A stretch of 46,516 bases of DNA, from NCBI GenBank assembly GCA_051941275.1, contig JAVEBF010000001.1, forward strand, positions 62,001-108,516. Direction: 5' to 3'. The translations under genes and the position numbers were made by a program. The notes beneath the pieces were generated by a model. It ran no database searches, was not told the origin of the DNA, and worked only from the letters and a program-made list of their open reading frames with translations. Of this stretch, positions 26,423 to 29,578 are shown piece by piece (the first letter of the stretch is position 1; the number at the start of each line of letters is the position of its first letter). This DNA comes from Dirinaria sp. TL-2023a (taxonomy: Eukaryota).

Positions 26423-28136
26423 ATGCAAGATCTACTCGACAGGAGTATCGACGCCAATATTTCAGGGGCGTCGAGCTTGAAATCGGAAGAAAATGCTCTT
26501 GGCGGGTTAGGCGTACATGAAGACTTTGACACGGAAGGGATAAGTGCAGAGGAATTAAAGTACTGGGCGCAAATTGCACCGGAGGACCAAAGACTGGCCC
26601 TCGTGGAAGAACCGACTTTCGAAGAGACTATAAATTCAAGAAGTTCCCACCGTGAGAAGTACCAGTCTGCTCGAAATGCGAATGGCTAGCTAATGGAGAT
26701 TGCCTGCAGGGTTAACAAGCGAGCAAGCTGTAGCCCGAGTAGAGCTCTTCGTCCGCAGCCACCACTTTTTCCAGAAAGCCGCAACATCTTTCACAACATC
26801 TGAAAGGCGAAAGTTTGAACGTGATACATACGATTTCGCGCGGTCTATGAGCTTTTCTAAAAGAGATGCCAAGAAGCAAGTCATCAAAGCGCGGCACCTT
26901 TGCGGTGAAGCAGACTATGACAGCGAACAGTCGGCGCTTGGTGGTGAGGTCGATGACCCAGCTGCAGTGACTAATATAAAGTCTACCCAAGCTGGAACAT
27001 TGATCAGTGACCAAGGAAGTACTCGCTCTGATCAGCAAAGCCAAGATCCTGCACACGCTCCATGTAAGGGAATTCCTGCAGGAGACAGATCTCAGAGCTC
27101 TAAAAAGAGGAAGTCTCGCACTGGAAGCGGCTCAGCAACCGCTACGAATGCCAAAAAGAGGAAATGCAGCAATAGAAACGTACATAAGGGCCACGAACTC
27201 TCTTCAACGACCAAGGACTGTCGGTCACATCGAGCAAACAAAGATTTGCTAAATCGACATCACGACCGAAAAGCGGATCTCCGAGGTAACGGAGTAGCTT
27301 CAAAACCTAATATAACTATGACTCGTAACACGGCATTCACCGGACGTAGCCTAGGCGTGGACTCAACGAAAGCCCAATCTCCAGCCAAGTCCAGTGGGAG
27401 AAACGGCATCCAAGGAAGGGTAGAATCCGATCAGAGGGGATCAGATGGTAATTTAAGCTCGCCTCTACTCAACGGTACAGAAGAACCAAAATTAGCGAAG
27501 CATTTAGAGCGCAGGCACAAGCGAAATCTCAGAAGGCAACGCCGCAAAGAACAGCGACTTTCTCAAATGCCTATAAACCAGGCTAGGTCGCCGGCGGGAA
27601 TCGAAGCTGCTTCTCCAGAGGCCTCGTTTGCTGGAAGCAGCTCCAGACCCTCAAACGAAGTGCAATCACTCGAACCCAGAAGTCAAAAGGAAGCGCACGA
27701 AAACTTTGTTCGATCCATGGAGCGTGATCCGGACGAACATGGACGGTTTAGCGGGCGGGAGAAGAAAGCTGGACAGCAGTCCCAAGAAATGACTCCAGTT
27801 TTAAATGCTGAACTACGGGCATTGAACGCTGACACGAGAAAACAACAGATCAATTCATTCAATCAAGGTATTCTGAGGAAAGAATCGAAAGCTCTGAAGG
27901 ATGACATCAAAGATATGAAAGCGGAGCAAGAGGAACTTGAGGAGGACGAGAGAGCCGGTAAGCGGGAGATTGAGAAAAAGGTGGAGGATCTTGAAATTCA
28001 GGGCAAAAGCAAAGAAACTCCTGAAGCTACATTGGAGTTGTCACAACTCAAGCCCAGAAAGCGAAGAAAGAAGTACAAAGGCATTGCCGACTCAGATGAT
28101 GTGGATGTGGATTTTCGCGCTCCGATGATTCCGTAG
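26423..28136 (+). CDS. Basic, largely low-complexity hypothetical protein (ORF1 of the glycosylase locus), exons 26423-26651, 26710-28136, ~551 aa
   Basis: Intron 26652-26709 (GTGAGA..CTAAT..CAG) joins ORFs 26402-26689 and 26700-28136 in phase. Small helical block FVRSHHFF..FTTSERRKFERDTYDFARSMSFSKRDAKKQVIKAR; NLS-like clusters (KKRKSR, KKRK, KPRKRRKKYK); coiled-coil near the C-terminus; ends DVDFRAPMIP*. Confidence 0.8.
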
Positions 28137-28175
28137 GCATGACCGCTGCTGATGAGGGAGCGTCCTTTGATCATC
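28109..28175 (+). other. Candidate -1 programmed ribosomal frameshift signal (G_GAU_UUU + 8-nt spacer + structured RNA)
   Basis: Heptamer 28109-28115 is in the X_XXY_YYZ-like phase of ORF1 (GTG GAT TTT). The -1 frame is open from 28100 to the glycosylase stop at 29578. GAUGAUU 28124-28130 can pair with GAUCAUC 28169-28175. Confidence 0.5.
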
Positions 28176-29578
28176 CACACCTAGTCCTAGTACCCTCGCT
28201 GAGGGAATTGCCAGAGCCAGCCTGCGTCAAGAAACGTAGAGCACCCAAAAATAGTACAAAGGCGAGAGCAAATGAGAATGAGGAAGGTCTAGCAAATAGT
28301 CCGCAAACCCTGGTTTACAAGGACATCGACACCCGCTTTCCTTGGAGCGACTCTGACCTCTCCAGCGCACCATCCAGTCCTGTGCCACCTTCGCCGGTCT
28401 TGGAGAGATATAAGCTTCTCTCTGCCCCCAAAGTATATGCCAAGGATTCCCCTCATCACTCTTCCTCTCCAGCTATCTCCACACCATCGTCCACACCTTC
28501 TACCAAGGCCGCTTCCAAAGCTCGGCTCGTCACTAAGCGCAAGCTCTCTGCGCCCAAAATCTCACCCTACTTCCCCACCCCGCCGACAGCGGTGAAAAGC
28601 AAGACTCCCCGCTCTAAACGACCCGCAGCCTCCTGTATTCCCTTCCCTCCCCTCTCCTCCTCTCGCTTCGGCCTTGTCCAAGAAGCTCTTTCCACCCAAC
28701 CATTCCGTCTCCTCATCGCCGTCATATTCCTCAACAAGACCCGTGGCGCTGTCGCACTCCCCGTCTTCTTCGCGCTGATGGAGCGCTACCCCACCCCTGA
28801 GGCTCTGGCAGAAGCCGAACTGGAAGATATAGTGGGGTTCTTCAGTACGCTAGGGTTGCAAAACCAGCGCGCGAAGAAAGTGCTGGGGTTGGCGAAGGAG
28901 TGGGTAAGCGAGGCACCGAGCCGAGGCCGGCGGTGGCGAAGGAAGGATTACCCCCAGAAACGGGACGGGAGAGACATCCGCGCGGAGGAAGAGCCGATCG
29001 CAGACGACGATGAGGATCCCAGAGTGGCGTGGGAAGTGGGCCGACTTCCTGGAATCGGAGCGTATGGGATCGATTCCTGGCGAATCTTTTGCCGAGATCG
29101 ATTACGTGGTATTGAGGCCCCGATCATGTCTGAGTACGTTTCTCCGTTGCCGAGTACAGCAGACGAGGGTGGGGATACACATGATAATGACAAAAAGGCC
29201 GAGCACGAAATGCGTGAAAAAGAGATGAAGGGCGAGTGGACGCGCGTGCTGCCGCTGGATAAAGAGCTCCGAGCCTATTTGCGCTGGCGGTGGCTTCGGC
29301 TGGGTTGGCAATGGGATCCGCTTACGGGAGAGCGGAGCCGTGCGAGTGAGCAGGTGATGAGGGAAGCGGAGGGCGGCGGTGTCATTGTTGAAGGGGAAGG
29401 TGGTGGGAGAGTGGCGACGATGAGCGAGGAGCCGAAAAGTGGTGAGGACGGAGGCAGTAATAATAAGATATTGAATGAGAACTCCGACCCGGTGACTGGA
29501 ATAGACTGCAGGGAGAAAGGTGGAAAGGTTAATGCCAGTGTAGATACTACAGAGAAGGAACAAGGTATAGTGGAATAG
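28139..29578 (+). CDS. MBD4-like HhH-GPD DNA glycosylase (G:T/G:U mismatch type); possibly expressed only as a fusion with upstream ORF1
   Basis: FGLVQEAL..PFRLLIAVIFLNKTRG..MERYPTPEALAEA..LGLQNQRAK; HhH plus catalytic Asp LPGIGAYGIDSWRIFC (compare MBD4 LHGIGKYGNDSYRIFC); PLDKELRAYLRW. No methyl-binding domain recognised. ATG lies 2 nt after the ORF1 stop. Confidence 0.9.
   Translation: MTAADEGASFDHPHLVLVPSLRELPEPACVKKRRAPKNSTKARANENEEGLANSPQTLVYKDIDTRFPWSDSDLSSAPSSPVPPSPVLERYKLLSAPKVYAKDSPHHSSSPAISTPSSTPSTKAASKARLVTKRKLSAPKISPYFPTPPTAVKSKTPRSKRPAASCIPFPPLSSSRFGLVQEALSTQPFRLLIAVIFLNKTRGAVALPVFFALMERYPTPEALAEAELEDIVGFFSTLGLQNQRAKKVLGLAKEWVSEAPSRGRRWRRKDYPQKRDGRDIRAEEEPIADDDEDPRVAWEVGRLPGIGAYGIDSWRIFCRDRLRGIEAPIMSEYVSPLPSTADEGGDTHDNDKKAEHEMREKEMKGEWTRVLPLDKELRAYLRWRWLRLGWQWDPLTGERSRASEQVMREAEGGGVIVEGEGGGRVATMSEEPKSGEDGGSNNKILNENSDPVTGIDCREKGGKVNASVDTTEKEQGIVE

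Follow-up and report, generated by a model that had tools for sequence, protein, structure and literature searches.

The window analysed here (46,516 nucleotides (nt) of contig JAVEBF010000001.1 of the lichen-forming fungus Dirinaria sp. TL-2023a) contains a gene for a predicted DNA glycosylase that is divided over a pair of open reading frames (ORFs), of which the second lies in the -1 frame relative to the first. At the junction of the two ORFs we found a short RNA element, directly downstream of a run of four U residues. The two-frame layout, the element and the covariation within it are conserved among related sequences. It is likely that the two frames are joined by programmed -1 ribosomal frameshifting at the U-run, with the element as the stimulator. 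From comparison of the sequences we infer that the recoding takes place on the ribosome, and not by splicing or editing, and that the element has this stimulatory role.

A glycosylase gene in two reading frames

ORF1 runs from 26700 to 28136 and ORF2 from 28139 to 29578, both on the plus strand (positions are those of the window), with ORF2 in the -1 frame relative to ORF1. ORF2 carries an HhH-GPD base-excision domain (PF00730; E 1.9e-07, 31.8 bits against a gathering cut-off of 26.2, residues 193-281). No Pfam domain was found in ORF1, nor in the upstream ORFs of seven relatives, only one of which gave sub-threshold matches. A protein search showed the protein of the window to be 100% identical to a hypothetical protein of 972 amino acids (aa) from a metagenome-assembled genome (MAG) of Dirinaria sp., a lichen-forming fungus. 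Dozens of homologues of 850-2170 aa were present in Lecanoromycetes and other ascomycetes (185 proteins with E <= 0.001; 8000 candidates scored). Because all 13 aligned Lecanoromycete models unite the N-terminal motif of ORF1 and the glycosylase of ORF2 in a single protein, the two ORFs are, judged by these alignments, halves of one eukaryotic nuclear gene. We propose that its product is an MBD4-like HhH-GPD DNA glycosylase with a long disordered N-terminal part.

The upstream frame is called A here (frame 0) and the downstream frame B (frame 2). Frame A encodes the conserved N-terminal motif followed by a long linker rich in K, R and E, and closes at UAG 28134. Frame B, which encodes a linker and the HhH-GPD domain, is open from 28100, and the overlap in the window is 34 nt. 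With a coding score trained on a small set (3 ORFs, 1797 codons), frame A was positive up to 28111 (0.305 bits/codon in 27958-28111) and frame B reached 0.210 bits/codon in 28115-28260.

Residues ~38-75 of ORF1 (26830-26920) contain a conserved motif, FERDxYD ... CGEEDYDS, without a Pfam family. It is common to the upstream ORFs of the lichen fungi and of the Helotiales-like loci described below (E 1e-6 to 1e-8).

The frame break and the proposed slip site in relatives

A scan of metagenome contigs with ORF2 alone gave no relative; the scan with alignment A1 gave 80 loci. Full-length relatives were present at 26 of the 80, all on contigs of the JAABU type, and these contributed 9 further distinct junction sequences. 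The window and these nine distinct relatives form alignment A3, to which counts out of ten refer in what follows. Two long ORFs, the second in the -1 frame, were found in the window and in eight of the nine relatives, with an overlap of 16 to ~150 nt. The ninth, L015 (= L016; 3929-6442), has a single fused ORF of 838 codons. In this locus the frames are fused by an insertion of 13 nt, situated 19 nt upstream of the slip site, the U-run is shortened, and the hairpin of the element is kept (72.4 bits with covariance model R1, see below). In a wider census, in which the rows include near-duplicates and represent ~17 distinct types, a -1 relation with an abutting upstream ORF of at least 200 codons was seen in 23 of 53 rows and a +1 relation in 1 of 53. 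In four groups of relatives the flanking indels (-22 to +68 nt) were multiples of 3; the exceptions were a compensating pair of 1 and 10 nt (L019/L025), 5-nt gaps at one alignment edge and the 13-nt insertion of L015.

The frames overlap by 16 nt in L019, by 22 nt in L035 and L040 (two Helotiales-like loci), by 28 nt in L010 and by 34 nt in the window, and a U- or A-run lies inside each of these overlaps. In L019 the opening of frame B precedes GGG-UUU by three codons, and frame A closes one codon past it. The frame-A stop follows directly on GAU UUC in L010 and comes one codon after GAU UUU in L025. Since the frames of the relatives overlap by as little as 16 nt, the frame change must, on this comparison, lie at the U-run 28112-28115. 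There, Phe is read by both frames (N UUU Y) in 9 of 9 two-ORF sequences (A4). The heptamers of these nine are GGGUUUU (five), GGAUUUU (the window and L025), GGAUUUC (L010) and GCAUUUU (L017).

Two other loci, L053 (3809-3972) and L056 (1421-1632), have a long upstream ORF in the -1 relation and no recognisable slip site or structure; their junctions may be introns or neighbouring genes.

A conserved RNA element downstream of the slip site

From the heptamer onwards, 57 nt align without a gap and with a mean identity of 81%, while the surrounding linker could not be aligned between species. Within this island, third codon positions of frame B are fixed at the structural positions of the element (28119-28165; Table 1). 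The element begins 3-6 nt after the slip site, and the invariant C-C of its lower stem begins 6 nt after the heptamer; ~5-9 nt is the usual distance for stimulators of -1 frameshifting. For the upper hairpin and lower stem together, 93.6% of the cells of A3 were paired (RNAalifold and pair counts); none of 500 column shuffles was as good, and slid controls reached 21-73%.

The upper hairpin (alignment columns 22-30/37-44) was paired in 95% of cells. It contains the frame-A stop UAG 28134-36 in its 5' arm and AUG 28139-41 in its loop, as had been claimed in a preliminary description of this DNA. Compensatory changes were found at 28130/28152 (AU in 5, UA in 4 and GC in 1 of the sequences), 28133/28149 (GC 8, CG 2) and 28138/28145 (CG 8, UA 2). 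The lower-stem pairs C14-G49 and C15-G48 (28122-23 with 28156-57) are CG in 10 of 10. The extension of this stem (pairs 11-53, 12-52 and 13-51) has changes on both sides, but 2-4 of the 10 rows are unpaired. When the extension and a helix between the loop and downstream sequence were included, 90.0% of cells were paired and again 0 of 500 shuffles was as good.

This last helix, in which the loop UGAC would pair with 28162-65, makes a pseudoknot possible. It was paired in 90% of cells, with G33-C56 and A34-U55 present in 10 of 10 and C35-G54 as CG in 8 and UG in 1, and the nested minimum free energy (MFE) structures of L011, L015 and L063 use the pairing of loop and downstream sequence. Two of its pairs never vary, none is compensatory, and L020 keeps 2 pairs only.

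Covariance model R1 matched the window and the 26 loci with E values of 1e-14 to 1e-18. With it, the remainder of the window and the 54 other loci yielded no further instance of the element.

The preliminary description had read the region differently, as a three-way junction of 28116-28175 with an alternative, crossing helix. All helices named in it are complementary (28124-30/28169-75, 28136-39/28147-50, 28132-34/28152-54, 28155-59/28163-67 and 28117-23/28157-63). The stability expected of this fold was not observed: the MFE of 28116-28175 was -16.7 kcal/mol, against -16.57 +/- 2.81 kcal/mol for dinucleotide shuffles (z -0.05; equally good folds in 87 of 200), and 28100-28200 was not above shuffles either (z -0.44). 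The three-way junction is not conserved, with 51.6% of the cells of A3 paired and 196 of 500 shuffles as good, and both its GAUGAUU/GAUCAUC closing stem (41.4% of cells paired) and its AGGGA/UCCUU hairpin (44.0%) are specific to the window. More remained of the alternative helix 28117-23/28157-63, which was paired in 68.6% of cells (reached by 1 of 500 shuffles), shares positions with the conserved lower stem and, together with a hairpin, makes up the MFE structure of the window. The first hairpin was placed correctly, but its register was off by 3 nt because of a GCUGCU repeat. A pseudoknot topology is possible, with other partners than those proposed (the loop UGAC and 28162-65). Conservation and covariation at the junction, on which that reading had been made to depend, are present but in another register. 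The proposed role as frameshift stimulator thus has strong comparative support (a -1 break, a short overlap, a covarying island and the second cassette described below), whereas the architecture first proposed for it was unsupported.

Table 1. Position of the features discussed (window positions, except for the last row)
Feature	Position	Strand	Details
Upstream frame A (coordinate modulo 3 = 0)	26712-28115	+	Starts after the first annotated intron, ends with the Phe codon 28113-28115
Annotated 179-nt intron	27958-28136	+	GTAAGC..CGTAG; the acceptor is the 'stop' of ORF1
Proposed shift site GGAUUUU	28109-28115	+	Frame A GAU UUU, frame B GGA UUU; U-run 28112-28115
Downstream frame B (A minus 1; coordinate modulo 3 = 2)	28115-29578	+	From UCG 28115-17 to the stop
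Spacer into 5' arm of lower stem	28116-28123	+	C28122 and C28123 invariant; 28119-28123 can pair with 28156-57 and 28159-61
Internal loop, 5' side (GAUGAU)	28124-28129	+	Nearly invariant; opposite UGA 28153-28155
Upper hairpin	28130-28152	+	28130-34 and 28136-38 pair with 28145-52; A28135 bulged; loop AUGACC 28139-44
Internal loop, 3' side, and 3' arm of lower stem	28153-28161	+	UGA 28153-55; invariant GG 28156-57; then 28159-61
GUCC, candidate pseudoknot partner of loop UGAC 28140-43	28162-28165	+	3 pairs in the window, 4 in 7/10 sequences
Example of the Helotiales-like cassette	L035:1855-1924

A different cassette at the same junction

At nine loci (L035, L040, L041, L042, L045, L046, L048, L052 and L058), the downstream ORFs of which are closest to proteins of Phialocephala, Lachnellula, Coleophoma and Venustampulla, a different signal was found at the same gene junction. 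The slip sites in frame A are G GGA AAA (L035, L040), N NNA AAA G (L041, L042, L046, L048, L052, L058) and UCA AAC (L045); in L035 and L040 the 22-nt frame overlap lies around the heptamer. The slip site is followed by a 5-nt spacer and a stem of 11 base pairs (bp) with compensatory changes, and the frame-A stop is located inside the stem. The loop CCAGG was present in 8 of 8 loci found by regular expression (GCAGG in L052) and faces a downstream CCUGG. There is no conserved AUG after the junction in these loci. Unlike the lichen element in sequence, this signal looks like a textbook -1 cassette with an H-type pseudoknot, and it considerably strengthens the case for frameshifting in the lichen form, which is less canonical.

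Proposed mechanism and points against it

In the proposed mechanism, ribosomes translating frame A would reach GAU UUU (28110-28115), where the peptidyl-tRNA-Phe would slip back by one base on U UUU (28112-28115). Reading would then resume in frame B from UCG 28115 and continue through the element into the glycosylase domain. Ribosomes that do not slip would stop at UAG 28134 and yield the N-terminal protein only. The element 28119-28165, with its lower stem, internal loop, bulged hairpin of 8 bp and possible pseudoknot, would act as a roadblock and so promote slipping. That fused relatives exist points to the fusion protein as the functional form of the enzyme.

Several observations count against this mechanism. 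The heptamer of the window, G GAU UUU, departs from the canonical X XXY YYZ pattern; tRNA-Asp re-pairs poorly on GGAUUUU and the P-site tRNA of L017 (GCAUUUU) cannot re-pair, so that only slippage of a single tRNA is conserved. None of the ten related sequences folds above shuffles over a 53-nt stretch (z -1.42 to +0.35), and the hairpin of the window has a C.U mismatch (28132/28150) and several G.U pairs. Relatedness among the ten sequences makes the shuffle controls overstate significance, and compensatory change was seen in three pairs only; the compensatory pairs and the slid controls are stronger evidence than the shuffle figures. No sequence from the RNA library spans the junction, as the contig that comes nearest ends at 28103. 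Part of the conservation, finally, could be that of a peptide motif of frame B, DDS..M[TI]A.DEG.

In two unsplit relatives, L050 (3431-3563) and L032 (3221-3368), peptides were noted (DDSLPVIATDELGMIADEG and DLNDVPVIATDGRGMITD, respectively) that by eye resemble the frame-B reading of the lichen element. Because unsplit relatives carry this resembling peptide, conservation of the element may be partly at the protein level.

Alternative explanations

A spliceosomal intron of 3n+2 nt (27958-28136, or a short one such as 28107-28156 or 28133-28203) could also join the frames, in which case the element would be part of an intron or would regulate splicing. The gene is nuclear, comes from a fungus and has one ordinary intron at least (26654-26711), and the public model joins the frames by an intron with GTAAGC..CGTAG. 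Many combinations of GT and AG keep the frame open, GTRAGC is found at the position of 28133 in 7 of the 10 sequences, and the indel analysis does not cover ~90 nt around the junction. On the other hand, the ten sequences have no conserved GT or AG, and L019, L020 and L025 lack the GT at 28133. The frame-A stops of L010, L019 and L025 force the donor to a position at or before the U-run, where GT is absent from the window, L010, L017 and L025. Intron lengths would be expected to vary modulo 3, but the relation of the frames is -1 throughout; the element aligns without gaps and lies as a whole in the ORF of the fused locus L015.

The annotated intron itself is coding-like. Its 179 nt are open in frame 0 for all 59 codons, with a coding score of 0.305 bits/codon in this frame against -0.127 and -0.612 in the other two. 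A 411-nt contig of a lichen metagenome RNA library, which may contain DNA, matches 27694-28103 without gaps (13 differences) and runs through the donor, so that the intron is not removed there. One RNA-library run contained a small share of the sequence words, and its two contigs cover 27694-28103 and 29030-29304 only. Moreover, gene predictors solved the break in four different ways in the public models of four species (P0003, P0007, P0008 and P0009). The 179-nt intron is probably not real, and an intron of any kind at the junction is an improbable explanation of the break.

Two separate proteins, with ORF1 ending at UAG 28134 and the glycosylase starting at AUG 28139 by termination-reinitiation or internal initiation, could likewise be made, the AUG being presented in the loop. 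The stop and the start are 2 nt apart in the window. Eight of the 10 sequences keep the AUG in the loop, with a frame-A UGA overlapping this AUG as AUGA, and this weighs against frameshifting as well. Against two proteins, L019 has UUG at this position, the frame-A stop ranges from 24 nt upstream of the AUG to overlapping it, and the Helotiales-like loci lack a conserved AUG after the junction. Separate initiation leaves unexplained why Phe is read in both frames at the U-run (9/9) and why frame B is open from the U-run in all; furthermore, the unsplit or fused relatives L015, L055 and L061 make one protein. We therefore give this explanation only a small chance of being correct.

Recoding at the RNA level, by which polymerase slippage or editing adds an extra U at the T-run, would use the same homopolymer and give the same frame change, and DNA alone cannot tell it from ribosomal slippage. 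The run is only 4 T (3 in L010), and known transcriptional slippage sites are longer. Nor does it explain the presence of a conserved structure at a spacing typical of frameshifting or the pseudoknot cassette of the second group, and we consider it very improbable.

An assembly error or a recent inactivating mutation, with a structure by chance, has a practically negligible probability: the window comes from a MAG and its fold is not above shuffles, but the same break and element recur in 26 metagenome-contig loci (9 further distinct sequences), and both ORFs are open for hundreds of codons. The U-run, the constant -1 relation and the two cassettes are not jointly accounted for by any one of these alternatives.

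Three other types of RNA element were rejected as candidates for the conserved island. A hammerhead ribozyme (CUGAUGA) did not fit, as 5 of the 10 sequences have CUGUUGA and one has CUGCUGA. Excision of the Ire1 type or of a 23-nt hairpin was dismissed on the frame-A stops of L010, L019 and L025, which precede the hairpin. In an element resembling a selenocysteine insertion sequence (SECIS) the orientation of the G.A motif would be reversed, and ascomycetes are not known to have selenoproteins.

The internal loop

A standard kink-turn, as set out in the available account of these motifs (PMC8191799), consists of a helix, a 3-nt bulge and tandem sheared G.A/A.G pairs, with C:G at -1b:-1n. In the window, C28123:G28156 is likewise followed by a 3-nt bulge (GAU), G28127.A28155, A28128.G28154 and then U.U, and this sequence pattern is present in 10 of 10 rows. 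The GAUGAU/UGA internal loop may therefore form a kink-turn, with the caveat that its invariance may partly reflect the encoded Asp-Asp and Glu residues.

Kink-turns occur in box C/D small nucleolar RNAs (snoRNAs) and in the 5' stem-loop of U4 small nuclear RNA, and we take the GAUGAU/UGA loop to resemble the pairing of box C with box D. A search of Rfam gave nothing above threshold; three box C/D matches in 28089-28158 scored 16.7, 15.2 and 9.1 bits (gathering scores 39-45; E 2.3-8.9). A box C/D snoRNA was rejected as an identity for the element, with a best Rfam score of 16.7 bits against a gathering score of 39. The sub-threshold matches reflect the GAUGAU and CUGA motifs, and a second GAUGAUG is found at 28095-28101, just upstream of the slip site.

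Proteins of the L7Ae/Snu13 family bind kink-turns. If the loop were a true kink-turn of the box C/D type, it could recruit a protein of the L7Ae family (e.g. Snu13), and the RNA-protein complex, not the stability of the RNA, would cause the slip; we regard this as speculative and rather unlikely. If true, the ratio of full-length glycosylase to N-terminal protein would be tuned by the free pool of a protein of the snoRNA-protein particles and the spliceosome, and this would be the first -1 frameshift in a cellular gene that depends on a kink-turn and on a host protein. Protein-dependent stimulators reportedly include cardiovirus 2A and arterivirus nsp1-beta with poly(C)-binding protein. The likeness to these would lie in a bound protein within the roadblock, provided that the internal loop is a protein-binding kink-turn.

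Comparison with known systems

The closest precedent that we found is PaYIP3, the Rab-GDI dissociation factor of Podospora anserina. According to the available account (Malagnac et al. 2013, PMC3777964), it has a -1 shift at U UUU UCC, followed 2 nt downstream by a pseudoknot, shows compensatory changes and is conserved in Pezizomycotina. That account, together with a review (PMC5009743), describes the support for it as 12 colinear complementary DNAs, a GFP fusion and a yeast reporter with 1% frameshifting. Both are cellular genes of filamentous ascomycetes in which one ORF is followed by another in the -1 frame. Both have a U-rich non-canonical site (U UUU UCC in PaYIP3, N UUU UCN/CNN here) followed by a stem-loop or pseudoknot with compensatory changes, and, as far as the PaYIP3 account goes, both signals were conserved for long and altered or lost in some lineages. 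The gene described here is a different one, in which the catalytic domain lies in the downstream ORF and is preceded by a long upstream ORF (~480-815 codons). Site and structure are 3-6 nt apart here and 2 nt apart in PaYIP3, and here the structure has a conserved internal loop. Two unlike cassettes occur at one junction in the present gene, which is known from sequence comparison, whereas PaYIP3 is known by experiment.

In viral cassettes for -1 frameshifting, a slippery run is separated by ~5-6 nt from a stem, the loop of which pairs downstream (H-type pseudoknot). The Helotiales-like form (G GGA AAA, 5 nt, 11-bp stem, CCAGG/CCUGG) closely matches this pattern. The lichen form differs from it in its interrupted stem and in a stem 2 of only 3-4 pairs, and the gene concerned is a DNA-repair gene on a host chromosome, neither a virus nor a retroelement. 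The coronavirus infectious bronchitis virus is the viral comparator cited in the PaYIP3 account (PMC3777964).

The literature searched contained no paper on frameshifting either for this glycosylase family or for lichen fungi. Very few -1 frameshifts are well supported in cellular genes of eukaryotes that do not derive from retroelements, and YIP3 was the sole fungal precedent found. The present gene would be a second fungal case, in a DNA-repair enzyme, conserved in lichen fungi and with another cassette at the same junction in the Helotiales-like group. If this is true, frameshifting can be kept over long periods while its signal is replaced, and the two forms provide a natural pair of stimulators for comparison. 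It would also mean that the gene has two products, the N-terminal protein alone and the glycosylase fusion, in a ratio set at translation.

Public gene models

The deposited protein maps to 26423-26653, 26712-27957 and 28137-29575, so that its model contains the ordinary intron 26654-26711 besides the 179-nt one. From this protein of 972 aa ~59 genuine residues are probably missing, and its joint between the frames is probably misplaced. In the three other models (P0007, P0008 and P0009) the break was repaired by following frame A to the stop and then jumping in one, by a jump from the G-G-U of the slip site in another and by changing frame via an upstream 'intron' in the third. Since gene predictors bridge the break with invented introns, public proteins of this family from lichen MAGs are probably wrong around the junction.

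Models from Gallowayella, Physcia, Lecanora, Candelina, Candelaria and Trapelia (P0019, P0026, P0027, P0028, P0030, P0033 and P0037) have the motif GF.SPMIH.. in one frame, or show small length differences. This hints either at independent hard-wiring of the shift in these lineages or at further mis-modelling.

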